Sequence record: OR786310.1
Length of the DNA stretch: 64,000 bases
Strand: one strand, 5' to 3'
Source: Escherichia phage ETEC-TG
This document shows, one piece after another, positions 31,002 through 49,028 of the stretch; the first letter of the stretch is position 1; each line of letters opens with the position of its first letter. A program made the translations under genes and the position numbers. Below the pieces are notes generated by a model. It was given only the letters and a program-made list of their open reading frames with translations. It did not search any database and was not told the DNA's origin.

Positions 31002-31280
31002 TTAAAATGGTTCGTTAGTCTCCATCATATATTCTGCTTCTAGTTCTTCCATATGCTTTCTAAATTGGAAAGCAATTTCTGCTACAGTTACATTTAAATC
31101 TTTTTCAAAAACTTCTGTAGAGCCTTCATAAAAACGAATACCGTCAATTAAAAGCCCTCCGTGGTAATCCCAATCACTTTCACGAGAAAGCGGGTTAGGC
31201 TCTTCATAATAGTAATCCACCTCCACAACTAAGGCTTTCCCGTTACAAGTGGTGTATTCAAAATCAAAAGTGTTAATCAT
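31002..31280 (-). CDS. Hypothetical protein
   Basis: 92 aa, acidic; ATGA overlap with upstream gene. Confidence 0.4.
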   Translation of the reverse strand: MINTFDFEYTTCNGKALVVEVDYYYEEPNPLSRESDWDYHGGLLIDGIRFYEGSTEVFEKDLNVTVAEIAFQFRKHMEELEAEYMMETNEPF

Positions 31281-32224
31281 TATAGCTCCTCAAATAAAAG
31301 TCTACGACGCTCATTCAACACATCAATGTGATAATGAGTCCTGACATACTTAGCTAATGCTAATCCTTTCTCCATGCAAACATCGGGAGCACTTAATAAG
31401 TATTCCGTAATATCTTTCCACTCGGAAGGTGTTTCAGCAAAGAATAACAAATCTTTAAACTCTTGCGTATGATAATTCTCACGAGGAGAACAGATCAAAG
31501 GTAAACCCTTAGCACCTGCCTCAAGAATTTTAAGATTGCTTTTTGCATTATTAAACACGTTATCAATCAATGGCGCAAGACTGATTTGATGACCATCGTA
31601 AGATTCCATGTAGTTGGCATATGGTCTTACACCTTCATAAACACAAGTTGGTGCTACATTTTCTCTGATTACAGACCATTCACGACTACTTAAAACTTCA
31701 GAATCCCTACGAAAACCACATATTGTAAGATCTTTACCAAAATCGGGCAAGATAGCCAAGTCTTGTTTATGTGTTTCACTTCCAGCCCAGACTAATGGAG
31801 TTTTGGAGTAGCGATCACGGGTCAACACAAATTGACCTTCATCGTAAGGAAGTCCATTAGGGATTATGTGCACATTATCATTGTATTGTGAAAGTTCAAC
31901 TTGCAAAGCAGGTGTCGTAGTTGTAACAAGATCGCTGTGCTCTAAAAACCATTTTAAATGTTCACGAATACCTGATTCAAAAATACCTTCTAACATGTGT
32001 CCTTTTGGAATAACTAAAGAGTCATCCAAATCCATAACCATTTTAAAGCCTAGGTTTTTAAGGGCTAAAAAGCCCTGTTTACCTTTTGTTGGCACCCCGT
32101 TAAAAACGAAAACGTTGTGTTTAGGTTGTGAAGAGAACTGCCTTGAGTAAGGCAGCACTACCCTATGGAAATCGCAAACACTATAATTGATTCCGTTACG
32201 ATTGTCAAGAATTATTTGTCCCAT
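31280..32224 (-). CDS. Glycosyltransferase, GT-B fold (paralog 1)
   Basis: 314 aa; C-terminal KSNLKILEAGAKGLPLICS resembles GT1/GT4 nucleotide-sugar binding region; paralog of adjacent gene. Confidence 0.5.
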   Translation of the reverse strand: MGQIILDNRNGINYSVCDFHRVVLPYSRQFSSQPKHNVFVFNGVPTKGKQGFLALKNLGFKMVMDLDDSLVIPKGHMLEGIFESGIREHLKWFLEHSDLVTTTTPALQVELSQYNDNVHIIPNGLPYDEGQFVLTRDRYSKTPLVWAGSETHKQDLAILPDFGKDLTICGFRRDSEVLSSREWSVIRENVAPTCVYEGVRPYANYMESYDGHQISLAPLIDNVFNNAKSNLKILEAGAKGLPLICSPRENYHTQEFKDLLFFAETPSEWKDITEYLLSAPDVCMEKGLALAKYVRTHYHIDVLNERRRLLFEEL

Positions 32225-32231
32225 ACTTCAC

Positions 32232-33179
32232 CTACAAACTTTCAATAACCTGGCGTCGCAACTCATTTGCATCTGCCAGATTATAATGTGTTCGAACATG
32301 TTCAGCCAAGAACAAGCCACGATCTTCCCGATAGTTTGGATTGCGAAGAAGCTTAACAATTTCGTAATGCCATTCTGCTTTGTTCTCTGCGTAAGCAACA
32401 GCACGAGCATCTACAGGGTTAAAATAAGGTAATACTTTAGAACAAACAATCGGAATACCTTTTGCTCCAGCTTCCAGGATTTTGAGATTACTTTTACAAT
32501 TATTAAAATCATTATCTACCAAAGGAGCTATAGCAATAGCATGACTTTCGTAAACACTCATGTAATTATCTAAATCTTTTACAGCGGCTTTATATTTGGC
32601 ATTTGGTAAATTTCTGCGAATCTTAATCCATTCTTGTCCCGTGATGCTCTGTGATGCTTCATATCCCGCAATAGTAAGAAGTTCATCATCGAAAGTATTA
32701 GAGACTAGTCGTAAATCTGGTTCGTGACTAGCACCGCCAGCCCATACAACAGGGGTACCGGATGAACGATCATTTGACAAAGTGAATTGTCCACTATCAA
32801 AAGGAAGTGCATTTCGGATCACAACAACATTCCTATTTAAGTGACGGATCTTATATGCCAAATATTCTGTAGTCACAATAACCACATCAGCAAGCTTAAC
32901 CATAGCTACAATAGCATGAGTGTTTGACTCGTATAGATTTGCTAAATAATGTTCTGGATTAAGTTGGTAGAAATCATCTAAATCTACAACAATCTTAACA
33001 CCTTGACGTTTCAAAGATAAAACGTATTCTGCACCTTTAGAGTGGATACGGTTAAACACAACAACATCTTTCTTAGGTTGAAGATTATGGTTGTTAAATG
33101 GCATAACAATACGATGATAGTCACAACCGCTGTGAGGTTTTGCATCAATTTTTAGTTTAGACCATTTTTTATTTGACAT
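32232..33179 (-). CDS. Glycosyltransferase, GT-B fold (paralog 2)
   Basis: 315 aa; KSNLKILEAGAKGIPIVCS; collinear similarity to 31280-32224 product. Confidence 0.5.
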   Translation of the reverse strand: MSNKKWSKLKIDAKPHSGCDYHRIVMPFNNHNLQPKKDVVVFNRIHSKGAEYVLSLKRQGVKIVVDLDDFYQLNPEHYLANLYESNTHAIVAMVKLADVVIVTTEYLAYKIRHLNRNVVVIRNALPFDSGQFTLSNDRSSGTPVVWAGGASHEPDLRLVSNTFDDELLTIAGYEASQSITGQEWIKIRRNLPNAKYKAAVKDLDNYMSVYESHAIAIAPLVDNDFNNCKSNLKILEAGAKGIPIVCSKVLPYFNPVDARAVAYAENKAEWHYEIVKLLRNPNYREDRGLFLAEHVRTHYNLADANELRRQVIESL

Positions 33180-33852
33180 GTGCTAGTGCCTCCTCATAGG
33201 AAATTCGGATTTTCCCATTTTTAATATCCTCTAAAGATGCTTTATATTCTTCCCAGTTAATCCCGATAGCAGCTTCTTTCTCTTCTTTTGTCAGATTAGC
33301 AAAAGGCATAGGATTGTTTCCAAAAACATCGTCTGGGTGGATATAAGCCATGATACGAAGTGGACAAGGTGTTGCCTGAATACCATGATTCAAACCAGCA
33401 GCTTGTAAACGGTGTCCCCATTCAGCATCTTCAAAACCATAACCATGAGTGTAAGGACGGAAATAACCCATCTTCTCAACAACGGCACGAGAATACATTG
33501 CAAATTGACACATTGCAAGTTCCCAGAGAATAACTTCTCCTTTGCTTCCAACAACTTTATCTTTGAAGTACTCCGGCATACCAAAGAAATCCCATCCTCC
33601 AGAAACAGCTTGATCTACAAAGTATGTTTCCCATCCTTCCATGACTGGGTAGCAATCGTCGTCAAAAATAAACCAATAATCATAACCTTCTTCATAAAAC
33701 TGGTGCATAAGTTCATTCCTGGCATAAGCTACACCTTTACGATCTGGATCGTTGAATACTCGAAAATCTGCACGTGGATCTGTTACAAGGTAGTCTTTAA
33801 GTGGACGGACACCTACAGTGATAACACCCACTCCGATTTTAATATTTTCCAT
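33169..33852 (-). CDS. Glycosyltransferase, GT-A fold (DxD)
   Basis: 227 aa; FIFDDDCYP DxD-type motif; Rossmann-like N-terminus IGVGVITVG. Confidence 0.5.
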   Translation of the reverse strand: MENIKIGVGVITVGVRPLKDYLVTDPRADFRVFNDPDRKGVAYARNELMHQFYEEGYDYWFIFDDDCYPVMEGWETYFVDQAVSGGWDFFGMPEYFKDKVVGSKGEVILWELAMCQFAMYSRAVVEKMGYFRPYTHGYGFEDAEWGHRLQAAGLNHGIQATPCPLRIMAYIHPDDVFGNNPMPFANLTKEEKEAAIGINWEEYKASLEDIKNGKIRISYEEALAHVK

Positions 33853-33860
33853 TTTCTCTC

Positions 33861-34424
33861 CTAAATAGTTTTACTGTGATCGTGACAGTGTAATAAATGA
33901 TGTATAGACCGTTGAGGATTTGTTTGACCTAATCTGTAAATGTGAAACAGATACATTCCCCGCATCAATCCTAACCTCTTTCCTTTTTCATGTAAAGTGT
34001 GAGAGAAAATTAAGTCGAATTGGATAGATTTTTCTTCGAAAGGAATTTCATTCCACAATGATTTTCTAAAAAGCAAAAAGAAACCTGCCAGAGGTGTTCC
34101 GAAAGGAACTTCTTCAACACTCACTTTATGATATTCTCTTGCAATCTTAGCATATTCTATATGGTTTAGAATATCTGGATCATCGTTAATTTGGTTAGAG
34201 AAAAGCTGATAACCACTGCCTAACCTGTTACAAGTTGCACCTATTACATCAAAAGGCGGGTTTGACATAACAAGCTCTTCAAGCATAGATGGTTGATCAG
34301 GTAGGAGGAACATTGTATCGGTATCTCTTAAACACACCCAACTATCATCTGGAAGAACGGCAATGGCTTCATTGATAGCCTTGCCGATATTTCCTGTCAG
34401 ATAGGGAGTAATATAATAAATCAT
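33861..34424 (-). CDS. Putative glycosyltransferase-like protein
   Basis: 187 aa; CLRDTDTMF DxD-like motif; in glycosyltransferase cluster. Confidence 0.4.
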   Translation of the reverse strand: MIYYITPYLTGNIGKAINEAIAVLPDDSWVCLRDTDTMFLLPDQPSMLEELVMSNPPFDVIGATCNRLGSGYQLFSNQINDDPDILNHIEYAKIAREYHKVSVEEVPFGTPLAGFFLLFRKSLWNEIPFEEKSIQFDLIFSHTLHEKGKRLGLMRGMYLFHIYRLGQTNPQRSIHHLLHCHDHSKTI

Positions 34425-35126: not shown

Positions 35127-35648
35127 TTAACTCCCCTTTGGTAGATAGAAACCATGCACTTTATCTCGATAAACAAGACGCATATCACGTTCCCAGTGTG
35201 TCCTTATATTCCGTTTCTTGAAGTATAGAGCACCTTTAGTAACATCTAAAACAGACCGCAATTCAGGAAAATGTTTCTCTAAATAAAGTAAACGCTCCGC
35301 TATTGCTTTTGCTTCTTGCCACTTATCTTTCTCTGTTACGTTAAAAGTTTTCGCATATGAGAATTGCCCTTTCTGGAACAAGACTCCTCTGACTGTGTTA
35401 GGGAAGTAGGTATCATTTCTTCTGTTGATTACCACATTCCCAACGGCATTCATTCCTTTTTTACCCAGACCTCGACCTTCTGCGTAAATTGCACAAGCTA
35501 ATAGAATTTTATCATTATATTGCTTTGTACATTTGTGAACTACTTTAGCGGTTTTTACGTTTGCAGCTTCGGCTTTCGCCACAACAGGTGTAAATGTAAA
35601 AGCAGTTAAGGATAGTAACGCAACTGTTACAAAGTTTTTTATCAGCAA
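35127..35648 (-). CDS. Secreted cell-wall hydrolase, SleB/CwlJ-like (candidate endolysin)
   Basis: 173 aa; signal peptide (LSLTAFTFTPVVAKA); AVGNVVINRRNDTYFPNTVRGVLFQKGQFS matches SleB-type Hydrolase_2 motif; TTG start with AAGGAGG RBS. Confidence 0.6.
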   Translation of the reverse strand: MLIKNFVTVALLSLTAFTFTPVVAKAEAANVKTAKVVHKCTKQYNDKILLACAIYAEGRGLGKKGMNAVGNVVINRRNDTYFPNTVRGVLFQKGQFSYAKTFNVTEKDKWQEAKAIAERLLYLEKHFPELRSVLDVTKGALYFKKRNIRTHWERDMRLVYRDKVHGFYLPKGS

Positions 35649-35710
35649 ATTTTGCCTCCTTTTTAAGTTAACGAATTTCTAGTATAACACGATAGAGGCT
35701 TTATTGCAAG

Positions 35711-35733
35711 AGGGGGATTTCTCCCCCTCAAAA
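35711..35733 (-). other. Palindromic stem-loop GAGGGGGA-TTTCT-CCCCCTC between TerD gene and hydrolase gene
   Basis: Perfect G/C-rich inverted repeat; near-identical copy at 17872-17890. Confidence 0.45.
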
Positions 35734-35747
35734 TCATTTGTTAATTA

Positions 35748-36350
35748 TTATGGACATTCATACCATTCTTTTTTACCACCGAAGGCCATCACCACATCGC
35801 AAATATCCAGACCAGCTTTACCTACACCATATGCTTTCAGCTTCCATTCCCCATCTTCACGAACCAAGGAAGCCACGTGGCAGATTGTGTTACCAGCTAC
35901 TTCAGGAGCCAGGAAGTCAAAATCCAGAATTTCCACATTGCGTTCGGAGTCAAAGATTTTAAGCATACCTTCAGAAGCATGACCAAAACGTTTCAGACCT
36001 GTATCATCATCAATGGTCAGAACAAAGGCAATCTCTTGTGCATCAGGAGAGATTTTAGCCAGAGTAATATCAATCTGCTCCATGCTGCCAGTCCCATCAC
36101 GAACATCGTCACCAGCGAAGGTAGAACGTTCAGGATCAAACTTGTTAGCGTAGCAAACCAGATGACGTGCAGACAGCATTTCAGGATTGCCAGCGGCATT
36201 ATGACGACAAACCAGTGCACTTACATCCAGATCCAGTTTAGAATCAGATTTCCAAGAGAATTCCAGGCGCAGTTCTTTCAGAGCCGGAGCAACTTTCTTC
36301 AGGGAAATTTTTTCGCTAGAGCCTTTTTTCAGGGAAATTTTATCAGTCAT
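35748..36350 (-). CDS. terD: TerD-family stress-response protein
   Basis: 200 aa; duplicated N-terminal EKISLKK strand; length and composition typical of TerD/TerE/TerZ family; GAGGAGA RBS. Confidence 0.65.
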   Translation of the reverse strand: MTDKISLKKGSSEKISLKKVAPALKELRLEFSWKSDSKLDLDVSALVCRHNAAGNPEMLSARHLVCYANKFDPERSTFAGDDVRDGTGSMEQIDITLAKISPDAQEIAFVLTIDDDTGLKRFGHASEGMLKIFDSERNVEILDFDFLAPEVAGNTICHVASLVREDGEWKLKAYGVGKAGLDICDVVMAFGGKKEWYECP

Positions 36351-36365
36351 CTTTTGTCTCCTCTA

Positions 36366-36635
36366 TTATTTAAGTGTAATACCAGTTACAGTCAATTCTA
36401 CTTCCAAAAGCTTAGATGTGTTTTGGATTGATACTAATTGTGCATGATGGTTTAGTTCTACAGCGGAATAATCATTCTCCCCATCGTCTACTTTTAAATA
36501 AACAATGATTTCACTAAGGTCTAAACCATTTTCGTCAAATGCATTTTCATAGACGAAAGTATCTCCTACATCCAAATCTTTAATGGTAAGGCATCGTTTA
36601 TTTACTTTTTGCTCATCAATTTCGAAGTTTAACAC
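36366..36635 (-). CDS. Small protein, paralog A of the DLDVG family
   Basis: 89 aa; DLDVGDTFVYENAFDENGLD ... EVELTVTGITLK; paralogous to 37657-37935. Confidence 0.5.
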   Translation of the reverse strand: MLNFEIDEQKVNKRCLTIKDLDVGDTFVYENAFDENGLDLSEIIVYLKVDDGENDYSAVELNHHAQLVSIQNTSKLLEVELTVTGITLK

Positions 36636-36864
36636 TTCTTCCTCCTAATGTTATCTCCGGTTTGTATATACGAAGAATTATAGCATTTTCATTTTCTTTG
36701 TCAACCCATTCTTCATAATCGGGCCATACATGAATCTCTACTCTACTTACAATATCTTCCATTCGCACAGTCCCAATGAAATACTCTTTGAGACTGCGCA
36801 TAATGAAAGCTTCTCTCTCGCGCCAATAATTTTCTACGACTTGAGAGGCAAGCTCGTCGATCAT
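36616..36864 (-). CDS. Hypothetical protein
   Basis: 82 aa. Confidence 0.4.
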   Translation of the reverse strand: MIDELASQVVENYWREREAFIMRSLKEYFIGTVRMEDIVSRVEIHVWPDYEEWVDKENENAIILRIYKPEITLGGRSVKLRN

Positions 36865-37655
36865 TTTTTAGCACCTACTTTAACAACCCACTCTCCGAAC
36901 TCTTCAGATAAAAGTTTGTCATAAAGCTCTGAATCTGTCAAGTCTAAATCTTTAATGCCAATAAAACCAACATTATCATAAGCATTTGCCAGTTCTTTCA
37001 GGAAGCCAAACTTCTCATTACCAACGCCAACCATGAACCAATAAATAGGTTTATTCTTATTCTCTTCAATAAGACGACGAACAGCACTAGGATCACCATT
37101 CTCACCATCCGTCTGGAAGAATACAACACCAGGGGTAACGTCAGCACCTGGTTCAGATACAGCTACAACTTTTTCACGCTCTACAGACACTGTTTCAGTT
37201 TTACCAAGCAGACGATTAAAGAAGCCTTTCTTTGGAGCCTCCTCTTGTACCACTTGTTTAGTGGTAATATATTTGGTAACAGTGCCAAAATACTCATCGT
37301 AGATATCTGCCATTACAGGGGCGTAATTTGTTCCACCTCCGATACGAACATTGCGCATACATTTACCAACATAGTCATCGTAAACGTCTGCTGTTGCTGG
37401 AGTAAGCTCTTGGGAACTCGTATTAAAGGCCCACATATCAATTTGTTGATTATCGTCGAACAGCATACCAAAAGGAAGCAGTTTACCTACAAAATCACTC
37501 ACTACCCCACTAGAATATAGACCATGCATACTACCAGAAATATCTAGAGCACATGCTACACGAAGAACAATCTTACCTTCATTCAGGTTCTTATTCTTTT
37601 TCAGAGAGAAAGCAAGGTTTTCTTGACGTTTTTTCAGGCTGATTTTCTCGGACAT
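36861..37655 (-). CDS. von Willebrand factor A (vWA) domain protein, TerY-like
   Basis: 264 aa; MIDAS DISGSM plus GGTN; N-terminal MSEKISLKK shared with TerD; AAGGAG RBS. Confidence 0.6.
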   Translation of the reverse strand: MSEKISLKKRQENLAFSLKKNKNLNEGKIVLRVACALDISGSMHGLYSSGVVSDFVGKLLPFGMLFDDNQQIDMWAFNTSSQELTPATADVYDDYVGKCMRNVRIGGGTNYAPVMADIYDEYFGTVTKYITTKQVVQEEAPKKGFFNRLLGKTETVSVEREKVVAVSEPGADVTPGVVFFQTDGENGDPSAVRRLIEENKNKPIYWFMVGVGNEKFGFLKELANAYDNVGFIGIKDLDLTDSELYDKLLSEEFGEWVVKVGAKK

Positions 37656-37656
37656 A

Positions 37657-37935
37657 TTATTTCTCCTTCTTAAGTGTAATATTGGTAACTTCTAAATCTA
37701 CTTCCACCATATTTGTATCTGGTGGGATGCAATGAGTATAGCCTCGTTGTGCTAGTGATCCATTAATACAAATCGCACTGTTTGTGGAATTTTTAATGAA
37801 CACCAAGTTATGGTAGGTATCCAACCCTGCGTCTTTATAGGCATCATAATACATGAATGTGGCCCCTACGTCAAGATCTTCGAAAGCAATAGGTAAATCC
37901 TGACTTTTTTCTTCTTGAATATTGAATCTAAACAT
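37657..37935 (-). CDS. Small protein, paralog B of the DLDVG family
   Basis: Start moved to ATG with GAGGAGG RBS; DLDVGATFMYYDAYKDAGLD ... EVDLEVTNITLK. Confidence 0.5.
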   Translation of the reverse strand: MFRFNIQEEKSQDLPIAFEDLDVGATFMYYDAYKDAGLDTYHNLVFIKNSTNSAICINGSLAQRGYTHCIPPDTNMVEVDLEVTNITLKKEK

Positions 37936-38491
37936 GCATACCTCCTCTACCAATTTTGAAGCCCAAATCGTAAGCTTCCTTAGTGATCTTTTGTAACTCA
38001 CTTATAGGAAGTGTTACAAGAGGATCATCTTCTTCAATTTCCATCTTGTCATCTTCTGTTTCAATGAGAGTATTATGCACTTTGTGATAAGGGTTGTCAA
38101 CACGTTTAAACTTATTCTTTTCTGTGCTGAAAAAACAATCTGGATCTTCTTCACCATCACCCCAACCTTGGTTAGGATCTCCGTCAGATTGTTCTGTAGG
38201 GATTTCACCTGTAAAGTACTCTTCCAGCACCATAGCAATACCGTCCCTTGGATTTGAGGAATGCATTAAATCACAAACCTTACCCCAATCCATAGCCCAT
38301 TCGAACCGTTCACGAACGCCATTTTCATCCTCCTTTCCAGAGAAAACACAACCATAACTATCATAGTTGCCATACATCTCTTCAATAACAACACCGTCCT
38401 TCAAAAGAAAGAGATAACAAGGTGATCCGTCGAAAGAAGTAGAAAGGGCAGCTTTGCCCGATTCTTTGCACAAAAAGCTAAAACAACCCAT
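37928..38491 (-). CDS. Hypothetical protein
   Basis: 187 aa, Cys- and acidic-rich. Confidence 0.4.
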   Translation of the reverse strand: MGCFSFLCKESGKAALSTSFDGSPCYLFLLKDGVVIEEMYGNYDSYGCVFSGKEDENGVRERFEWAMDWGKVCDLMHSSNPRDGIAMVLEEYFTGEIPTEQSDGDPNQGWGDGEEDPDCFFSTEKNKFKRVDNPYHKVHNTLIETEDDKMEIEEDDPLVTLPISELQKITKEAYDLGFKIGRGGMHV

Positions 38492-38889
38492 TACAAACCC
38501 TCCTTCAGATTATCAAGAGCTACAGTGGTTTCACAAAATTCTCCATAAGCTTTATGATGTTCCAGAAAAGCTTCGGGTCCACCCCAGTCATTATCTTGTG
38601 TATTCCAGCCATCTATAAAAGCATCTTCAATGATTGTGATCAGTTCCTGTCGAGTCAACGTAATGGTATCAGGTTTCTGCGTAGTTTCCACACGGAACCC
38701 TGGTTCTTCATAAAAACCTTTAGTTATAATGGATTCTAACTCTTCTGCATCACAGAGGAAGTAGCCACAAAGATAACACCAACCGTCATCATCTTTCATT
38801 ACTTCATAAACTTCACCACTTGCCAAATTAGTGAAAAGAGTAGGGTTTGTTACTGTAAGTTTTAAAAGAATACCTGTTGGATTATACAT
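38491..38889 (-). CDS. Hypothetical protein
   Basis: 132 aa; start overlaps stop of upstream micro-gene. Confidence 0.4.
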   Translation of the reverse strand: MYNPTGILLKLTVTNPTLFTNLASGEVYEVMKDDDGWCYLCGYFLCDAEELESIITKGFYEEPGFRVETTQKPDTITLTRQELITIIEDAFIDGWNTQDNDWGGPEAFLEHHKAYGEFCETTVALDNLKEGL

Positions 38890-39055
38890 CTTCTTCCTCC
38901 TCTAAAATATGGAACCCGTAATTACAATAATCCTGAAAGGTTTCGTGTGCAAGATCTTCTATATCCTCTTGAGACATATCATCTTCAATTTCGATATCCA
39001 CAACCTCATTGCATCCACACCAAGCAGTTTCAATATTCACTCGTAATATTTTCAT
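38882..39055 (-). CDS. Small acidic Cys-containing protein (57 aa; not in ORF track)
   Basis: Hand-translated MKILRVNIETAWCGCNEVVDIEIEDDMSQEDIEDLAHETFQDYCNYGFHILEEEEDV; GAGGAGGAGGAG RBS; TAATG overlap. Confidence 0.35.
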   Translation of the reverse strand: MKILRVNIETAWCGCNEVVDIEIEDDMSQEDIEDLAHETFQDYCNYGFHILEEEEDV

Positions 39056-39252
39056 TACTCCTCCTCCTCATTGAAGTCAATATCTGCAAGGAGTTCGAAT
39101 TTACGGAAGTTACGACAACCTTCATAAATATAACAATCACGACAAACTGCTAGAACACTTGGGGGATATATGCCTCCCATCGGTGCGAATCGTTTTTCGT
39201 CATCATAACGGACACCAATGTCTTCATCAATTATATAGATACGGATTCTCAT
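39055..39252 (-). CDS. Small Cys-containing protein
   Basis: 65 aa; CRDC ... C; acidic C-terminus. Confidence 0.35.
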   Translation of the reverse strand: MRIRIYIIDEDIGVRYDDEKRFAPMGGIYPPSVLAVCRDCYIYEGCRNFRKFELLADIDFNEEEE

Positions 39253-40361
39253 TTACCAAGCCCTCGTTTCACAGCAGCTACCATCCCGTCTTCCAGAGAT
39301 TGAACTTCATTAATATAATCAACACGAGCAGCACGGGCTTCCGTATTGATGCGGTTAGTTTCTTCCAGCATCTTAACCAAGTTTTCCTGATCGTGACGCA
39401 GAGTTTCAATATCCAACACTTGACGGTTAGCCAGTGCTGCTGCTTCGATCTGATTCTGTGTGGCAAGATCGCTACCCAGTTTAATTGCCAGGTTAAATTC
39501 ATCAAGAACGTTATTCTGCGTCTCTGCTGCTTTCATTTGACGTAAGCTCTCGATATACATTGAGAAGTTAGCAGAGTAAGCAGGAATAACATTATTTACT
39601 ATGTTACGCGCAGATCGCATTAAGCTTGCAGAAACTTTTTGCATACCTTGTACACGCGGTCCCATTTGGACACACAGTAGGCGCAATGCTTTTAAATCTG
39701 CAATACGAATCTCCAGAAGATCCAAAGTATCTCGGATCACTTGTCGCTGTTCTACTGCATCTTCTGGAAGAGCAGCCAAAGCTTGTTCTTCTTTTTCATA
39801 GGTTGCTGTTAGAAGCTGCATATCTCGGTTCAAACTTGCAGCATATTGTCCAATAGCTTGATGTAGCTTTTCAAGATATACCAAGGAATCTTCTTCTTTG
39901 CGAATATCCATTTGAAGGTTCTTTACCAACTCTTCAATACGGTTATTAACATTATCAAACTCCCCGAACAGGTCTTCTTTCATACCCATAACTTTTTTAA
40001 TGAGTTTAGTAATACCCTTGCTTTGTTTAATAGAGTTTGGATCAAGTTGTTTTGCCTGTTTAATCAAAGCTGTAAGTCGTTCACTCATCTGATCGCCTTG
40101 ATTACTACGTTGATGTTTTAACACCTCGGCATTCAAGGAACGCAAGGTTGTTCCTGCCTCTGCCCCAATCTCTTCAATCTCTTGTCGGGTCATAGAAGGC
40201 AAAACTGGAACTTCTTGCGGTGCCGCTGGTGCATAAACAGGACTGGCATCTAACACGCTTGGAGCGAATACAGATTTACTTGCATCTGTTGTTGCAGCGA
40301 ATACACTCATTTCAGACTTCTTCTGACCACCAGTAGCTGCTTTTAAAAATGGACTTGTCAT
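39249..40361 (-). CDS. TelA-like (toxic anion resistance family) coiled-coil protein
   Basis: 370 aa, predominantly alpha-helical/coiled-coil with TelA-like length and composition; located with TerC/TerD/vWA genes. Assignment by resemblance and context only. Confidence 0.45.
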   Translation of the reverse strand: MTSPFLKAATGGQKKSEMSVFAATTDASKSVFAPSVLDASPVYAPAAPQEVPVLPSMTRQEIEEIGAEAGTTLRSLNAEVLKHQRSNQGDQMSERLTALIKQAKQLDPNSIKQSKGITKLIKKVMGMKEDLFGEFDNVNNRIEELVKNLQMDIRKEEDSLVYLEKLHQAIGQYAASLNRDMQLLTATYEKEEQALAALPEDAVEQRQVIRDTLDLLEIRIADLKALRLLCVQMGPRVQGMQKVSASLMRSARNIVNNVIPAYSANFSMYIESLRQMKAAETQNNVLDEFNLAIKLGSDLATQNQIEAAALANRQVLDIETLRHDQENLVKMLEETNRINTEARAARVDYINEVQSLEDGMVAAVKRGLGK

Positions 40362-40948
40362 TCTTCATTCTCCTCTTCTGCATCTCTTATATATGGTGAA
40401 ACACCGTACTCTTTAGCTACTTTAACCCAATCATCCCATTTATACAACCATAATTTTCCTTCAGTTCCTTCTTTATCTGATTTCAACCACATGTTAGGTT
40501 GCTTGCCTGGGTACATGCGATTAGGTTTACGATTATAACCTCTAACACATCTTGTCGCAAACCTATCTACCAGAACAAGAACATATTTATACTCGTGGTT
40601 CAACGGCTCTTTGGAAGTGGCTTTAGGATTAGCCCCTAACTCTGCTGCCAGTTTTTGCCAATGAGCACCGTGCCTACTAAACTTACCCATACAACCATCA
40701 ATAGCGTGAGCAATTTCGTGCTTCATTGTATCCACGATCATATCTCTTGTAGAGTTCTTATGCAAGTGCCAATTTACAACAACAATTTTATCTCGGTAGT
40801 TGCACCAACCGAAAGAGTTATTCACTTTGTTTCTAACACAAGCTTTATATCCTGCTTCACGTAACATGTTGTAGTAAACAGGAAAATCTTCTTTTATTTC
40901 CTGCATCACTTCCCACCACAAGAGTTGCAAGTCTCTCTCGGTATGCAT
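40358..40948 (-). CDS. SprT-like zinc metallopeptidase domain protein
   Basis: 196 aa; HEIAH (HExxH) preceded by FGWCNY region typical of SprT-like domains. Confidence 0.55.
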   Translation of the reverse strand: MHTERDLQLLWWEVMQEIKEDFPVYYNMLREAGYKACVRNKVNNSFGWCNYRDKIVVVNWHLHKNSTRDMIVDTMKHEIAHAIDGCMGKFSRHGAHWQKLAAELGANPKATSKEPLNHEYKYVLVLVDRFATRCVRGYNRKPNRMYPGKQPNMWLKSDKEGTEGKLWLYKWDDWVKVAKEYGVSPYIRDAEEENEE

Positions 40949-40950
40949 AC

Positions 40951-41544
40951 TTACACCTTAAAAGCGAAATGCGTGGTCGTGGCTTCAAAATCAGGGCCAG
41001 ATAAACTTGCACTGAAATCTGAAATATTTGTAATTAAAAAGCTTTTATGCATACCTAACACAGCCACGCTTTCAATATCTTCTACTAACATTTCAATCAT
41101 GTTAGAAACATGGCTGAACGTATAGTTTTGTTTTTTGATGGTGTAGAAAGAAAGATTCCCACCTGCTGTATAAGATACTTCTTCAAAATCTTTAATCGTA
41201 TACTGTGTCCCATCAGTAAAGAAAATGGTAGCTTTATTAGTAGCACGTTTCTTGTTTTTTGGTCCTTTTTTACGCTTATTGCGAGTAGGAAAACCATTTG
41301 GAAATACCGTAGCTACAAATTCTTCAGGAGAAACCTCCTTACCGAAATCATAACCATAAGAAACAGCATCTATAAACTCGTCGTCTTCATTTTTAAAATA
41401 ATGAAAATAGGGCCAATTTGAGAGATTATCGAGCATCTTATGCTCATCCACAGCAGAGAACGTATCCCTCAAAGCGCGTGTAATTTGCAAAGCATTAGGC
41501 AAACTTTTAACACCTGTAATGGAAGTACGGATAGAAATTGTCAT
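40951..41544 (-). CDS. Hypothetical protein
   Basis: 197 aa; Lys-rich stretch. Confidence 0.4.
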   Translation of the reverse strand: MTISIRTSITGVKSLPNALQITRALRDTFSAVDEHKMLDNLSNWPYFHYFKNEDDEFIDAVSYGYDFGKEVSPEEFVATVFPNGFPTRNKRKKGPKNKKRATNKATIFFTDGTQYTIKDFEEVSYTAGGNLSFYTIKKQNYTFSHVSNMIEMLVEDIESVAVLGMHKSFLITNISDFSASLSGPDFEATTTHFAFKV

Positions 41545-41558
41545 TGTTTTTCTCCTTA

Positions 41559-41996
41559 TTAACGTCGCTTGCTACGAGATGAACTCTTTTTACTTAAAGG
41601 GCTATTGTAAGATTTACGAGTTGTATAGCTACTATTTGTTTTAAAAGTTTGTCTCGGCTTTTCATAAGTTTTTATCTCTTGTTTAGGCTTACCATAAAAA
41701 TTAGTTTTCGGTTTAGGTGTATTATAATGCTTATTAATAATCGTTCTGTTATCGTTATAATCCCCACTGCTACGATTACTACCGCCACTCATCATATGCC
41801 CTAACAACATACCTGTAGCAAACTCACCAACACCGCTACTACTAGAACCGCCACCATTGTTGATAATAGTTGTATCTCCGTCAGATCCTTGTTGAGCGTA
41901 TTGTTGAGGAGGTTGTTGGTATTGTGCAGGATTTGTTTCATCCTCGCAAGCTGTTAAAAAGATACAACCAATTAAAATCAGGGCTAGTTTTTTCAT
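41559..41996 (-). CDS. Lipoprotein (lipobox LTAC), Gly/Ser-rich
   Basis: Start moved to MKKLALILIGCIFLTAC with GAGGAAA RBS; signal peptide plus lipobox; basic C-terminus. Confidence 0.5.
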   Translation of the reverse strand: MKKLALILIGCIFLTACEDETNPAQYQQPPQQYAQQGSDGDTTIINNGGGSSSSGVGEFATGMLLGHMMSGGSNRSSGDYNDNRTIINKHYNTPKPKTNFYGKPKQEIKTYEKPRQTFKTNSSYTTRKSYNSPLSKKSSSRSKRR

Positions 41997-42179
41997 ATTT
42001 GCTTTCCTCGTTTTGGCTATTAATACATCTGTGTTTGAAATCTCCAGAGAAGCAATAAAGTTGCTCTCCATCTCGGTATAAACTCACTTTACTGCCGTTG
42101 ATTACGCTTGTCAATACAAAAATTACAACAAACAACCCTATTGCAAAACAGATATTTTCAAACACAACCAACAAGTATT

Positions 42180-42530
42180 TCATTTTAAAAATACCTCATC
42201 ATCAGTTTCATTATCCCAGAAGAACAAATCCCAACCATTCGGATCATTCCATTTGGCTGCTGGAGAAGTCCATATTTGTTCGATATCAATATTCAAAACT
42301 TCACCGTTTCGTTTTGAAACAGCTTTAGTTAATTCCCAACGAGATACAGGCTCTACTTCCCCTGAACCACTCCCACAACAAGCTACCACGTTAGGAGGCA
42401 AATTAATTGGATCTTTGGTCACAATCATAACGCTTACCCCAGGGTAAACTTTTGAAAGATAATCTAAAACGTAATCCACATCACCAGATAAATCCCAAAC
42501 AAGTTCTTGAATCTCATCAAAATTATTCAT
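42180..42530 (-). CDS. Hypothetical protein
   Basis: 116 aa; preceded by terminator-like hairpin and GGAGAGA RBS. Confidence 0.45.
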   Translation of the reverse strand: MNNFDEIQELVWDLSGDVDYVLDYLSKVYPGVSVMIVTKDPINLPPNVVACCGSGSGEVEPVSRWELTKAVSKRNGEVLNIDIEQIWTSPAAKWNDPNGWDLFFWDNETDDEVFLK

Positions 42531-42549
42531 AAGTCTCTCCTATAAAATA

Positions 42550-42565
42550 GCCTCCCGAAGGAGGC
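42550..42565 (-). terminator. Rho-independent terminator after TerC gene (UUCG tetraloop)
   Basis: GCCTCC-CGAA-GGAGGC followed on the minus strand by AUUUUAUA. Confidence 0.55.
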
Positions 42566-42572
42566 TCATCTA

Positions 42573-43547
42573 TTAAACAGCAGCTTCTTCTTTTTCAGGG
42601 AAGATAAAGCTTGCAATAACACCAAGAGCTAATGTGCCTAGAACAATCATCAGACTTACGTTAGGGGAAATATCATGCGGGAAGAATGACCACTTGGCAT
42701 GAAGTGTTTCACCGAACGGGTGATACATAAGTTTAGCACCAACAAACACCAGAACCACAGCAACAGCTTTCTCTAAGTGAACCAGATATTTCACAGCTAC
42801 ACTCAACACAAAGAAAAGTGCACGTAAACCAAGAACAGCCATCAGCATTGCAGAATAAACTAGCAGAGGTTCTTGTGTCACACCGATCACAGCCGGAACT
42901 GAATCAAAAGAGAAGACAATATCTGTAAGCTCAATAACAAACACACAAAGAAGAGCAGGAGTTGCATATTTAATACCATTCTTAATGGTGATGAACTTTT
43001 CACCATCCAGTGCATTGTGCACAGGCAGAACTTTACCTACTAAACGAACAGCCCAATGCTTAGAGTAATCAATATCCTCTTCTTCGTCACCACCTTTGAT
43101 GATAGCCACGGCAGACCAAGCTACAATCAAACCGAACAACACTTGGACCGACCAATGAAGGTTAAACAAAGCGGTCCCTGCTGCAACAAAAATACCTCGG
43201 AAGACAATGGCTCCTGCAATCCCCCAAAGTAGAATCTTATGTTGGAGATGTGTGCTCTTAATTCCAAAGCTTGCAAAAATCGCCATGAACACCATCAGGT
43301 TATCTACAGAAAGACTCTTTTCCAACACATAGCCACTTAGGAAAAGCGCGGCAAACTCTTTACCATGTTCTACCCAAATGAATGCGTAATATCCTAAAGC
43401 TAAAGCAATCCAAAAAACAGACCAAAGCAAAGCAGATTTAATTCCAATTTCTTTATTCTCTTTATGACCAAAGAAATCGATACCAATAGACAATGCCAAA
43501 ATACCAACTAAAACAACTACATCAATAATTGGGAAACCGAGTTGCAT
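42573..43547 (-). CDS. terC: TerC-family integral membrane protein
   Basis: 324 aa; multiple TM helices; signature EKSLSVDNLMVF; GAGGAGA RBS. Confidence 0.7.
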   Translation of the reverse strand: MQLGFPIIDVVVLVGILALSIGIDFFGHKENKEIGIKSALLWSVFWIALALGYYAFIWVEHGKEFAALFLSGYVLEKSLSVDNLMVFMAIFASFGIKSTHLQHKILLWGIAGAIVFRGIFVAAGTALFNLHWSVQVLFGLIVAWSAVAIIKGGDEEEDIDYSKHWAVRLVGKVLPVHNALDGEKFITIKNGIKYATPALLCVFVIELTDIVFSFDSVPAVIGVTQEPLLVYSAMLMAVLGLRALFFVLSVAVKYLVHLEKAVAVVLVFVGAKLMYHPFGETLHAKWSFFPHDISPNVSLMIVLGTLALGVIASFIFPEKEEAAV

Positions 43548-43595
43548 TCTTTTCTCCTCTCTTTGCGGGGAACTATTCCCCGCTTCATGTGATAT

Positions 43596-43623
43596 ATCTT
43601 ACTCTTTTTAAGAACTGTGTCAA
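43596..43623 (-). promoter_or_regulatory. Sigma70-like promoter (TTGACA-N16-TAAGAT) upstream of TerC gene
   Basis: Minus-strand -35 TTGACA (43618-43623) inside conserved AAGTGTTGACA motif; -10-like TAAGAT 16 nt downstream. Confidence 0.4.
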
Positions 43624-43626
43624 CAC

Positions 43627-43848
43627 TTATTTTGTTGAATGAGAGGAAAAGATTCCTCGTAATACCGCCAGAATAAACGAAACACAAACCACGGTCCAGA
43701 AGGTTACTGGGACAGTGATATCTGCATGACCCATAACTTCAGCAACATAGTTGTAAGCCAGCAACAGTAACCAAGCTGGAATCAAACTAAGCATAAAAGC
43801 AATAACAAAAAAGCTTACCACTGCAACAATACCTGCAAAAACACCCAT
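43627..43848 (-). CDS. Small membrane protein (two TM helices)
   Basis: 73 aa, hydrophobic. Confidence 0.45.
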   Translation of the reverse strand: MGVFAGIVAVVSFFVIAFMLSLIPAWLLLLAYNYVAEVMGHADITVPVTFWTVVCVSFILAVLRGIFSSHSTK

Positions 43849-43860
43849 ACTAATCTCCTC

Positions 43861-44334
43861 TTAAAGTTTATAAATAGTCACATCGTGACCTGTTTTTACT
43901 AAAGTTTCTTCAATCATCACTTGGATGATAGCCCAATTACCTCCAGCATATCCAGCGCCAATCATAGGTAAGCCGATCTTACATTTTTGGTCACGGAGAA
44001 GCAAATCATTAGCCATAGCTATTAGTGCATCGTAAAGTGCATCATAGTCCAACTGACGACCTTTAGCATTGTATCCGTAACGGTATTGCCCGTATAGATT
44101 ATATACCAAAGGGTCTGATTGTTCGTCTGGCACCCCTAAACTAAAACAACCTAGTTTACTTTGATCACCAGCCATTGTGTCTAAGTCTGCTGCATATGCG
44201 TAAGGAAATGCTTGTTTGATTTGTGGGGCAATACCTGCCCCCATATTACACATACAGTTGCAACAATGAGCAATAACAGTTACTTCACCTGCTTTAGCGG
44301 CATCAATAAGATTACCTCTTTTCATTTTAAGCAT
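43861..44334 (-). CDS. Macro domain protein (ADP-ribose binding/processing)
   Basis: Start moved to ATG with TAAGGAG RBS; motifs GNLIDAAKAGEVTVIAHCCNCMCNMGAGIA and IGLPMIGAGYAGG resemble macro-domain signatures. Confidence 0.5.
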   Translation of the reverse strand: MLKMKRGNLIDAAKAGEVTVIAHCCNCMCNMGAGIAPQIKQAFPYAYAADLDTMAGDQSKLGCFSLGVPDEQSDPLVYNLYGQYRYGYNAKGRQLDYDALYDALIAMANDLLLRDQKCKIGLPMIGAGYAGGNWAIIQVMIEETLVKTGHDVTIYKL

Positions 44335-44347
44335 TTTTAGCTCCTTA

Positions 44348-45175
44348 TTACAGAATGTGTTGTTTTGTGTAACGATCCAAGAATTCAAAGTTTTCAGCAT
44401 ACTTTGAAATTCGGTTGTAACCTTCTCCCAAACATCCAAAGAAAAGTTGCTCTACATAGTAATGTGGCAATTGGCTAAGAATGATTTTGAAGTCTTCATG
44501 ATTTTGGCCCATAAGATACTTAATAGGACGAACAAGACACTGTGCATCACGTTCTTCATTAATCATTTTAACAAACGCTTCTGGTGTATTAATGTAGTTA
44601 AAATTCAGTTTAGCTTCGGTATCTGCTTGATTACCTTCGTATTTTGCAAAATACAAGAAGTAAACATCATTTTTAACTTGATTTTCATCAAGGATCTCAA
44701 TCAGTTTGTCTTCATGCGTTCCAGTGATATTTACATCATCAATGAATACAAGCTTCTTATCACCCCAGAATTCTTTGTTGCAGTAGAATGTATCCCCATC
44801 AATAAGTTTCTTACGACTAGCTTTATCCAAGAAACCATAATCGTTGATATAGCTAACTTTACGATGAATAATGTCCAGTTCTGCTGAACGACCTTGATCA
44901 TATTGTGATTGCAACATATTAAAGTAATTAATAAAATGATCTGTCATCATTGTTGCAGCATTATGCACATGGTTGTAAGGAGAAGGGATGATAACAAATT
45001 GTTCCCCAATATGTTTCATTGCCACTTGAGCAAAAAACTGAAGTGCCAATTCTTTACCCATACGACGCGCAGCCTGGTTACTACCAAATTTCAATTTTGA
45101 ATAATCTTTAATATCAAAAGTAGCAGTTTCCAGGTCATCAAATTTATTTGCAAAAATTTGAGTTTGATTACGCAT
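44348..45175 (-). CDS. Phosphoribosyltransferase-fold (PRTase) protein
   Basis: 275 aa; PRPP-binding-loop-like motif KLVFIDDVNITGT; GAGGAGA RBS. Confidence 0.55.
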   Translation of the reverse strand: MRNQTQIFANKFDDLETATFDIKDYSKLKFGSNQAARRMGKELALQFFAQVAMKHIGEQFVIIPSPYNHVHNAATMMTDHFINYFNMLQSQYDQGRSAELDIIHRKVSYINDYGFLDKASRKKLIDGDTFYCNKEFWGDKKLVFIDDVNITGTHEDKLIEILDENQVKNDVYFLYFAKYEGNQADTEAKLNFNYINTPEAFVKMINEERDAQCLVRPIKYLMGQNHEDFKIILSQLPHYYVEQLFFGCLGEGYNRISKYAENFEFLDRYTKQHIL

Positions 45176-45824
45176 TTACAATTTCTCCTCTTTTAAGTTT
45201 CTCTAGTAAGTCGTTAGGGTTCTTAATATGACAGAAGTTAAATCCTAAGTCAACACATTTTCCATCATATTCTTCACTATCGCCTACGTGCAATACTTCG
45301 TGCCCTAACAGAGGGATCGGAGAATACGTGAGCGTGCGAGCAAAGAATCGCGGATCTGGTTTACAAAGTAAAGCTTCATCCGAGAAATGGGTGAACTCAA
45401 AACAATTCCAACTATCAAACTTACAAGCACGACGCAGGATATCCCCTGATATGAAGTTGGTATTGCTCTTAATACTCAAATCATAACGCCCCGAAAGATA
45501 CAGCAAGTACATCGGCAGATCCACGGCTACGTGTGGTGGAAACTTAAGGAACCACTGTTCACACTCGAAACGAAGCTTTGCAGACTTCCAAGGCGTTATC
45601 CCAAGTTCAGAACCAAGTTTTTCCCAGGCGTATGCTGCACACTCGGCTTTGCCTTGAAGTGCTGCATTATCCAGTTCCTTTTTGATCTTCTTATAAGCTG
45701 CTCTTGCTTCCACTTCCGTAATATCTCCATATTTTGCGATAGTCCAGGCTCGCATATCTGCGTAATTGGAGTTTGCTGTGATCAGTGTGTTCCATACATC
45801 AAAAGAGATATGTTTAATAGTCAT
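45168..45824 (-). CDS. HAD-superfamily hydrolase (subfamily IA-like)
   Basis: 218 aa; motif I FDVWNTL, motif II SIKSNT, motif III CKPDPRFF, motif IV HVGDSEEYD. Confidence 0.6.
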   Translation of the reverse strand: MTIKHISFDVWNTLITANSNYADMRAWTIAKYGDITEVEARAAYKKIKKELDNAALQGKAECAAYAWEKLGSELGITPWKSAKLRFECEQWFLKFPPHVAVDLPMYLLYLSGRYDLSIKSNTNFISGDILRRACKFDSWNCFEFTHFSDEALLCKPDPRFFARTLTYSPIPLLGHEVLHVGDSEEYDGKCVDLGFNFCHIKNPNDLLEKLKRGEIVNA

Positions 45825-45825
45825 A

Positions 45826-46431
45826 TTAAGCCCACCATGCGTCTAAGTTAAGATTACTGTCCACTACCACTTGTTCTATGTGGTAGCCTTTTATCTGTAT
45901 CCCACTGTTCAAGAGCATATCATACGCTTCATTGAAACGCAACTTATCTTCTGCGGAATATAAGCGAGCATTATAAAATCGGTAATCAATTTCTTCAGCA
46001 TTAGAAGAAATACGGAAGAAGTTTGTTTCTACTTCGGGATCACTTGCTGAAGTCTTAATGTGAACTTCTCCGTAATTTTCTTTACTTAGATCCATGAAAA
46101 GAACACAGGCAACATGTTTAAACATTCGTTCCAGTTTGTAACGAACAACATTGAAACCTGCATTCTCAAGTTTTTCTACACACTGCAACATTAAAGTAGT
46201 GTCGAGATCGCTTTGATACTTTGTTAACATACGATCACGTTGAGACTTTGTATCCCGATGTAAATCAATTGTTGTGCATTTGGCACCAATAATCTTAGCT
46301 GCTTTCATCAACTCTTCAGAACTAACGTTAGATAAAGTAAGATGAAAATGGGCTTTCCACACTTTTTTAGCAGGGACACCAAAAGATTTATCCCCACTAT
46401 TCGGCATGTTGACTACTACACTATGTTGCAT
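45826..46431 (-). CDS. Hypothetical protein
   Basis: 201 aa; contains one HLTL motif but no convincing second 2H motif. Confidence 0.4.
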   Translation of the reverse strand: MQHSVVVNMPNSGDKSFGVPAKKVWKAHFHLTLSNVSSEELMKAAKIIGAKCTTIDLHRDTKSQRDRMLTKYQSDLDTTLMLQCVEKLENAGFNVVRYKLERMFKHVACVLFMDLSKENYGEVHIKTSASDPEVETNFFRISSNAEEIDYRFYNARLYSAEDKLRFNEAYDMLLNSGIQIKGYHIEQVVVDSNLNLDAWWA

Positions 46432-48998: not shown

Positions 48999-49028
48999 AA
49001 AATCAAAAAAGGCGCAAAGTGCGCCTTT
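48999..49028 (-). terminator. Rho-independent terminator upstream of nrdD
   Basis: AAAGGCGCA-AAGT-GCGCCTTT with U-tract on the minus-strand transcript. Confidence 0.55.

Follow-up and report, generated by a model that had tools for sequence, protein, structure and literature searches.

An abbreviated Ter-type gene core of a Phapecoctavirus recurs in unrelated phage lineages and may act in superinfection exclusion

What Ter systems do, in bacteria and in phages alike, has been a question since the 1990s. Inhibition of phages and resistance to colicins both require the bacterial genes terC, terD and terZ, as stated in PMC12054061 with reference to Whelan 1995; the same report describes that deletion of terC in Klebsiella pneumoniae resulted in larger plaques for 8/8 phages tested and in poorer growth with four, and its introduction presents TerC-family proteins as exporters of Mn(II). 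The ter genes of virulent phages have been discussed as well (PMC7824862, PMC8386662, PMC9796965), and superinfection exclusion was proposed for phage Ter systems by Iyer et al. (PMC7824862, section 3.4.10). Because GenBank records (phAPEC8, ESCO13 and phi92 already have TerC, TelA and TerE annotated) and published papers describe them, Ter genes in a virulent phage are already known, and this observation by itself adds little as a discovery. Here we analyzed a 64,000-nucleotide stretch of Escherichia phage ETEC-TG (record OR786310.1; "the window", whose numbering is used for all positions), in which a set of Ter-type genes lies at 35748-43547, a region whose genes are all on the minus strand, and compared it with these systems.

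An initial annotation of the window, made from the sequence alone, had described there a TerD, vWA, TelA-like, SprT-like and TerC gene set within a virulent phage, and had named searches with profile hidden Markov models as a way to check it. The virulent-phage setting was correct, and all five genes were present at the positions and on the strand indicated. In the profile searches the five families were all significant (E 4e-9 to 3e-40), with Pfam scores well above the gathering scores that were taken as cut-offs (25.3 bits for TerD, 29.4 for vWA-TerF-like, 30 for TelA, 25.6 for SprT-like and 27.8 for TerC). In order of position, these genes encode a TerD-domain protein of 200 amino acids (35748-36350; PF02342, E 3.2e-28, 98.9 bits), a TerF-type vWA protein that stands alone and has its MIDAS motif intact (36861-37655; PF10138, E 1.6e-37, 130.1 bits), a TelA-family protein of 370 amino acids (39249-40361; PF05816, E 3.2e-33, 115.7 bits), an SprT-like zinc metalloprotease (40358-40948; PF10263, E 4.2e-9, 36.7 bits) and an integral membrane protein of the TerC/Alx subfamily, of 324 amino acids (42573-43547; PF03741, E 3e-40, 138.3 bits). 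Regarding a Ter system in the sense of Anantharaman, Iyer and Aravind, the locus contains TerD, TerC, TelA and a vWA protein with MIDAS; TerB had no profile match in any open reading frame (ORF) of 34.4-46.4 kb. The approximately 12 remaining ORFs of the region showed no significant Pfam match and belong to PHROGs of unknown function.

The sequence motifs could be read directly in the translations. The intact MIDAS of the vWA protein appears as DISGS...GGT...TDG, and its residues D38, S40, S42, T109 and D183 are invariant across five phage homologues. TerC carries the claimed EKSLSVDN signature, keeps both E..LS.DN-type half-motifs, and scored 319.3 bits with NCBIfam TIGR03718, the Alx metal-homeostasis subfamily, whose curated cut-off is 246.4. 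Bacterial TerD binds Ca2+, and the TerD of the window aligns to the solved Klebsiella TerD structure 2KXT over 179 residues. In the AlphaFold2 model of TelA the N-terminus is disordered and the helices 130-197 and 203-293 then form a long hairpin; the model has a block-mean predicted local distance difference test score (pLDDT) of 74-95 over residues 131-260 and of 45-66 beyond them.

The locus was compared with those of phi92 (Justusliebigvirus), Klebsiella phage 05F01, a divergent metagenomic lineage (L019), Caulobacter phage CcrSC, phiPsa374 and related contigs, the jumbo phages G17, Muenster and XaC1, and a Rhizobium phage. The constant set across lineages consists of TelA, the vWA-TerF-like protein, TerD and a membrane protein of the TerC superfamily, which is TerC in Phapecoctavirus, phi92 and phiPsa374, and the homologous DUF475 in 05F01, L019 and CcrSC. 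These four families were found together in phi92, 05F01 and L019; they are dispersed among lineage-specific ORFs in the Stephanstirmvirinae and form a tight four-gene block in the Caulobacter jumbo phage CcrSC and in Otagovirus-like (phiPsa374-like) Pseudomonas phages. The core recurs, that is, in at least three unrelated phage lineages. Among 50,697 phage records, TelA was detected in 222, vWA in 209 and TerD in 145, largely in the same genera, and a scan of IMG/VR with the TelA profile yielded nine loci, every one from lineages already seen. The ratios of nonsynonymous to synonymous substitution rates (dN/dS), calculated against L010 with the exception of a lipoprotein compared with phi92 and approximate because synonymous sites were saturated, were 0.04 for TelA, 0.05 for TerD, for SprT and for the phosphoribosyltransferase PRTase_3 described below, and 0.11 for TerC, and spanned 0.04-0.14 for TerD, TelA, TerC and vWA together. 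Judged by these ratios, the Ter core is under strong purifying selection and clearly functional.

The 7.8-kb region matched 99 phage records; the identity was 99.4% for Escherichia phage dw-ec and 98.5% for phAPEC8, which typifies the genus Phapecoctavirus (myoviruses of 150 kb within the Stephanstirmvirinae). By sequence, the stretch is from a Phapecoctavirus, a phAPEC8-type virulent E. coli phage. The GC content of the region (0.38-0.40) is the same as that of the remainder of the window, and terC had zero DNA similarity to 5,426 complete E. coli genomes. As the GC content matches the genome and there is no similarity to E. coli DNA, the Ter genes are long-term residents of the phage lineage, and a recent capture from the host was ruled out on the same grounds.

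The initial annotation had also placed the set in one operon of coupled genes under a sigma70-type promoter. "Coupled" is fair, because many of the genes overlap by their start and stop codons, and sigma70-like promoters do exist; the single operon did not stand, since a terminator follows terC and at least two sigma70-like promoters are internal. The Ter region is more than one operon, with at least three separate units predicted from sigma70-like sequences of the host type. The promoter of terC (TTGACA-N16-TAAGAT, minus strand, 43623-43596, found by scanning) belongs to a leader (43552-43623, minus strand) made up of the promoter, an 8-bp GC-rich hairpin (GCGGGGAATAGTTCCCCGC) and a ribosome-binding site. 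In seven distinct lineages the TerC or DUF475 gene is preceded by this layout, with stems that differ in sequence, and the swap from one transporter to the other leaves the layout in place; RNAalifold predicts 7 base pairs for the hairpin, 7/7 with compensatory changes, and a comparable hairpin was not present at the other sigma70-like promoters of the window. Control of terC by a Mn riboswitch was considered and rejected, as neither the yybP-ykoY riboswitch nor any other Rfam element matched the terC leader at the gathering score or at E<=1. Directly 3' of the terC stop codon there is a strong intrinsic terminator (42549-42566, minus strand; AGCCTCCTTCGGGAGGCT followed by ATTTTAT), which has an equivalent in phi92. 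The terD gene would have its own promoter, a perfect sigma70 consensus with extended -10 (TTGACA-N16-TG-TATAAT, 12/12 matches in the scan; 36677-36704, minus strand) that sits at 36704-36677 within the coding sequence of the small protein p82, upstream of p89 and terD, and phi92 has TTGACT-N16-TAAAAT directly upstream of terD. Directly 3' of the terD stop, a GC-rich hairpin (GAGGGGGAGAAATCCCCCTC; 35708-35727, minus strand) is terminator-like with a weak T-run; the phi92 terminator at the same place is clearer. Promoter-like sites in the region showed no excess (51 vs 42.8 +/- 6.6 in shuffled sequence), and weight was given only to conserved sites.

The suggestion of the initial annotation that the set excludes competitors or remodels the envelope corresponds to a hypothesis already published (PMC7824862). 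Our tentative preference is likewise for an abbreviated, phage-resident Ter system that, by analogy with bacteria, might make the infected cell refractory to superinfecting phages. The functional core would comprise a TerC-superfamily inner-membrane transporter of divalent metals, TelA, the TerF-type vWA protein and TerD, which host RNA polymerase would express early in infection. TelA as a long helical bundle, the vWA protein with its MIDAS metal site and TerD with a fold that binds Ca2+ in bacterial homologues would assemble, in a metal-dependent manner, on the inside of the membrane beside the TerC-type transporter. Assembly and transporter would alter the ionic or membrane state of the envelope and reproduce the inhibition of phages and the resistance to pore-forming colicins that depend on bacterial terC, terD and terZ, and it is this altered state that would render the cell refractory.

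Several observations weigh against superinfection exclusion. TerD keeps its acidic Ca2+-site motif only in part (GDDVRDGTGSME vs GDNRTGEGDGDDE), the TelA model has no more than moderate confidence and retrieved generic helical bundles as fold matches, and no PADLOC model of a catalogued anti-phage system, TerY-P or other, matched TerD, vWA, TelA, TerC, PRTase_3 or the adjacent HAD protein; only the SprT-like protein gave a marginal match, to SspF (E 0.006). Early expression is suggested by the promoter consensus alone, and no transcriptome of any Stephanstirmvirinae phage was found in the literature. The bacterial phenotype may not transfer, because TerB and the TerZ/A/E paralogues are absent. 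The authors of the phiPsa374 study stated that the function is unknown (PMC9796965), and the remark of the initial annotation that the role of the set in phage biology is not established was upheld.

Two other genes that had been counted in the Ter set, those for the SprT-like protein and a lipoprotein, could not be supported as members of it, SprT being missing in phi92, which keeps the remainder. The SprT-like protein shows the HExxH motif that had been claimed (HEIAHAI...HGAHW, that is, HEIAH and a downstream HG..W), exceeds the gathering score and has the third His; it is not the equivalog of E. coli SprT (21 bits vs the NCBIfam cut-off of 175). Its stop codon overlaps the telA start codon, and it was found in 3/4 Stephanstirmvirinae lineages, including 05F01 and L019, whereas phi92 lacks it, the phi92 protein gp179 having no HExxH; no SprT partner was seen in the Otagovirus-like or Caulobacter phages. 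The lipoprotein (41559-41996, minus strand) was confirmed as such by its lipobox, L-T-A-C. Its true start is the ATG at 41996 (MKKLALILIGCIFLTAC), preceded by the ribosome-binding site GAGGAA, which gives 145 amino acids, the longer ORF being wrong; the body is of low complexity and rich in Gly, Ser and Gln, with a basic tail. The phi92 orthologue is gp180, with an annotated signal peptide, and the dN/dS of 0.57 between the two indicates fast evolution.

The remaining genes of the region are all on the minus strand. Next to terD are p89 (36366-36635; phrog_11278, PHROGs E 7e-45), shown by alignment to be a paralogue of p114, and p82 (36616-36864; phrog_22387), missing in phi92. Beyond the vWA gene lie p114 itself (37657-37935; phrog_11278, about 92 amino acids from an internal start), p187 (37928-38491; phrog_14928, conserved in phi92, dN/dS 0.11) and three small ORFs of 132, 57 and 65 amino acids (38491-39252). 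The fast-evolving p197 (40951-41544; phrog_27550) precedes the lipoprotein, which is followed by p81 (41938-42183), a small single-pass membrane protein with a hydrophobic N-terminus and an orthologue in phi92 gp181, and by p116 (42180-42530; phrog_27498). In the Stephanstirmvirinae, p114 is immediately upstream of vWA in 3/3 annotated genomes compared, and p197 adjoins telA or sprT in 4/4 lineages; since p197 has two close homologues only, no alignment was deep enough for structure prediction. The gp14 protein of phiPsa374 was considered as a homologue of p114 and rejected, the proteins being unrelated. Restricted to the Stephanstirmvirinae are p197, the p89/p114 family beside vWA, the lipoprotein and a SleB-like hydrolase after terD, and some of the lineages with the core lack SprT, some the lipoprotein and some an adjacent, upstream HAD-PRTase_3 pair. 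SprT-like, lipoprotein, p197, p89/p114, SleB-like hydrolase and HAD-PRTase_3 are lineage-specific companions and not obligatory parts of the system.

Upstream of terC, in the direction of transcription, the order of genes is p73, Macro, PRTase_3, HAD, a 201-amino-acid protein, NrdG and NrdD. The HAD-PRTase_3 pair (44348-45824), just beyond the region delimited by the initial annotation, had been missed there. PRTase_3 (44348-45175, minus strand; PF15610, E 1.7e-41) is a ComF-like phosphoribosyltransferase with an invariant phosphoribosyl pyrophosphate loop, IDDVxITGTHE, and is the PRTase type linked to Ter systems; in the published Ter model a PRTase and a HAD protein form the "signal biosynthesis" arm (PMC7824862). 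The HAD-fold hydrolase (45168-45824, minus strand) gave weak Pfam and NCBIfam matches, and its catalytic motifs are invariant in five homologues. Motif I is an invariant DVWNT in the window and in the homologues of L002, L006, L007 and L023, and because Trp takes the place of the usual Asp+2 general acid/base, this protein may not be an ordinary phosphatase. Its gene is always translationally coupled to that of PRTase_3, in phages and on rhizobial plasmids; in a search for PRTase_3 on plasmids with ter operons, only the isolated HAD-PRTase pair of rhizobial plasmids turned up.

Between the pair and terC there are the genes for a Macro-domain protein (43861-44439, minus strand) and for p73 (43627-43848, minus strand), a small two-helix membrane protein conserved in phi92 (gp184). 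The DarG-macro-like protein scored 21.6 bits with Pfam Macro, where the gathering score is 22; its phi92 orthologue reached 31.3 bits, and DarG was matched in PADLOC (E 1e-9) and in NCBIfam (E 2e-8). Upstream of its Ter genes phiPsa374 also has a Macro homologue, and a gene matching Pfam Macro takes this place in L021; the membership of the window protein in the Ter set is uncertain, and it may remove ADP-ribose from DNA or counter an ADP-ribose-based defence. The 201-amino-acid protein between HAD and NrdG (45826-46431, minus strand) had no Pfam match, is missing in phi92 and 05F01, and was matched almost end to end by two PADLOC "AbiEi" models (E 5e-13). In its AlphaFold2 model (pLDDT 82) ferredoxin-like folds are arranged in tandem, and no specific structural neighbour was found; H28, H30, T32, E122, H124 and K126 are invariant in 28 homologues. 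This protein may be a phage-borne antitoxin mimic; a 2H phosphoesterase, which would have two HxT/S motifs on a 2H fold, was considered and rejected.

The alternatives to superinfection exclusion were not separated by structure prediction. The module could serve the phage's own cycle, where the TerC-type exporter, TelA and the metal-binding TerD and vWA proteins would act during DNA injection, host takeover and pre-lysis to maintain divalent-cation balance and inner-membrane integrity under the stress of infection, protecting burst size. The Alx metal-homeostasis assignment of TerC is consistent with such a role, as are the position of the cluster among genes for replication and nucleotide metabolism (NrdDG, primase-helicase and PolA), the envelope proteins that accompany it (p73, p81, the lipoprotein and the secreted SleB-like hydrolase) and the ties of bacterial ter and TelA to envelope and metal stress (PMC12054061). 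Moreover, the member of the TerC superfamily that occupies the transporter slot varies from phage to phage, which suggests that transport activity in general counts for more than any one partner. We nevertheless consider this role rather unlikely: the documented bacterial phenotypes include inhibition of phages and colicins, and the module is not a general requirement, because the vast majority of virulent phage records are without a detectable homologue (TelA in 222/50,697). That the genes are unrelated morons, adjacent by chance and with no joint function, is most improbable. It is true that many unrelated small ORFs are interspersed, that SprT, p82, p116, the 201-amino-acid gene and the HAD-PRTase_3 pair are present in some lineages and absent from others, and that the genes are in several transcription units; however, the four families are found together in three or more unrelated lineages, in two cases as a compact four-gene block, bacterial genomes likewise link them according to the Ter-system model as summarised in PMC7824862, and all four core genes are under strong purifying selection, so that chance adjacency is already disfavoured.

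A counter-defence or signalling circuit, in which HAD-PRTase_3 would make a nucleoside-like metabolite sensed by TerD or vWA, or the module would neutralise membrane-attacking abortive-infection effectors, with the Macro domain and the 201-amino-acid protein acting in the same conflict, appears doubtful to us. The pair has intact catalytic motifs and lies upstream of terC in Phapecoctavirus and phi92, in agreement with the signal biosynthesis that the published Ter model gives to PRTase and HAD (PMC7824862); Macro homologues are upstream of Ter genes in two unrelated lineages, the Macro protein of the window being DarG-like and the 201-amino-acid protein matching the PADLOC AbiEi model, and NAD-salvage genes are beside the Ter genes in Otagovirus-like phages. 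The linkage between the pair and the Ter genes is loose, though, because HAD-PRTase_3 is missing from the sister lineages 05F01 and L019, which keep the Ter core, and occurs without adjacent Ter genes in XaC1, Rhizobium phages and Rhizobium plasmids. Finally, the database label "tellurite resistance" would favour a cassette of benefit to the host, conferring tolerance to tellurite, metals or xenobiotics in pseudolysogeny or slow infection; xenobiotic tolerance during pseudolysogeny was mentioned by Iyer et al. as an additional possibility (PMC7824862), and terC of K. pneumoniae plays a part in resistance to Te, Zn and Mn (PMC12054061). Published papers, in contrast, describe members of this genus as lytic, no integrase or repressor family was matched among the window ORFs scanned (~24-53 kb), the set is without TerB and the TerZ/A/E paralogues, and tellurium resistance was considered unlikely by the authors of the phiPsa374 study, whose phage has the same incomplete set (PMC9796965), making a resistance cassette very unlikely.

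Downstream of terD are the secreted SleB-like hydrolase, four glycosyltransferases, a primase-helicase and PolA. The SleB-like cell-wall hydrolase (35127-35648, minus strand; PF07486, E 2e-17) has a signal peptide, a TTG start and its own promoter, TTGCAA-N17-TG-TATACT; its gene comes next after terD in the window and in 05F01 and L019, and one extra gene (gp171) intervenes in phi92. The four consecutive glycosyltransferase genes (31280-34424, minus strand) are conserved across the Stephanstirmvirinae, one of them with a weak match to the TET-associated glycosyltransferase (PF20691, E 1e-3), and their target could be the host surface or DNA. On the other side, a strong bidirectional terminator with a 9-bp stem (AAAGGCGCACTTTGCGCCTTT, 49008-49028) lies between a 448-amino-acid gene and nrdD.

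Some observations concern the related genomes. A general link between TelA and metalloproteases was rejected: the "putative metallopeptidase" beside TelA in the jumbo phages G17 and Muenster (L017 7157-7846 and L018 7044-7724) has no similarity to SprT and is a Rv2179c-like 3'-5' exoribonuclease (Pfam E 4e-9), its label looking like an annotation error propagated from phage T5. Klebsiella phage 05F01 has, between a p197-like gene and telA, a 382-amino-acid ORF with no Pfam match (gene_119, L003 10846-11994), whose N-terminal E..LQNAID motif is reminiscent of GHKL ATPases. Records >98% identical to the region have been deposited as Acinetobacter phage ABPW7, Campylobacter phage B15 and Klebsiella phage ZCKP1, and these host labels are probably wrong or derived from contamination; Pseudomonas phage PsgM04F is a more distant relative, with a 90.8% identical TelA.

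A broader idea, which we regard as improbable, is that the Ter core is, instead of an exclusion device, a portable membrane-repair and ion-buffering machine that, expressed by virulent phages from a dedicated, hairpin-controlled early promoter, would keep the infected cell energised against membrane-attacking abortive-infection effectors or the "lysis from without" of rivals, while the separable HAD(Trp)-PRTase_3 pair would supply a nucleoside-like ligand for TerD or vWA. If membrane repair were true, it would be the first clear cellular function for the long-enigmatic bacterial Ter system. A genetically tractable phage that infects E. coli K-12, with a minimal four-gene core and defined promoters, represents a convenient test bed, and the interchange of TerC and DUF475 together with the conserved promoter-hairpin leader may help in the design of a functional test.

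Among the described systems, those of Iyer et al. (PMC7824862) share with this locus the four core families and the virulent-phage setting, and a PRTase and a HAD protein lie alongside here. This phage differs in being a 150-kb non-jumbo myovirus, in having the core dispersed across 8 kb and interrupted by some ten lineage-specific ORFs and the SprT-like protease, in its separate promoter-terminator units and in the PRTase_3 type of its PRTase. The same four families are found in the virulent phages phiPsa374 (Otagovirus; terC, terD, terF and telA, PMC9796965) and Klebsiella phiKp34 (PMC8386662), whose type of TelA and vWA proteins are 21-23% and ~26-29% identical, respectively, to those of the window. 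In phiPsa374-type phages TelA, vWA, TerC and TerD form a tight block beside NAD-salvage genes, whereas they are dispersed in this phage; their TerC is a short form of ~225 amino acids, compared with 324 here, and they are without SprT, the HAD-PRTase_3 pair, the lipoprotein and the SleB-like hydrolase. In the papers on phage ter genes we did not find the interchange of TerC and DUF475 in the transporter slot, the covarying leader hairpin of a terC-type gene, terC as a separate promoter-terminator unit or the invariant Trp at Asp+2 of the HAD protein.

With the bacterial terZABCDEF/terWXY genes (IncHI2 plasmid R478, Klebsiella virulence plasmids) the phage has TerC, TerD and a TerF-type vWA protein in common, and no DNA similarity to any E. 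coli genome or plasmid was detected. The locus is not of the R478 type: in place of five TerD-domain paralogues there is one TerD, with no TerZ/A/E paralogues and no TerB, and the vWA protein is standalone, unlike bacterial TerF, a TerD-vWA fusion. With respect to the E. coli Alx/TerC-family Mn(II) exporters (TIGR03718), the phage TerC, a putative transporter, scores above the subfamily cut-off, and its leader carries, instead of the yybP-ykoY riboswitch, a simple covarying hairpin. TelA, a component of the separate telAB/kilA locus (PMC8386662), is an addition of the phage to the genes that it shares with the bacterial operons.

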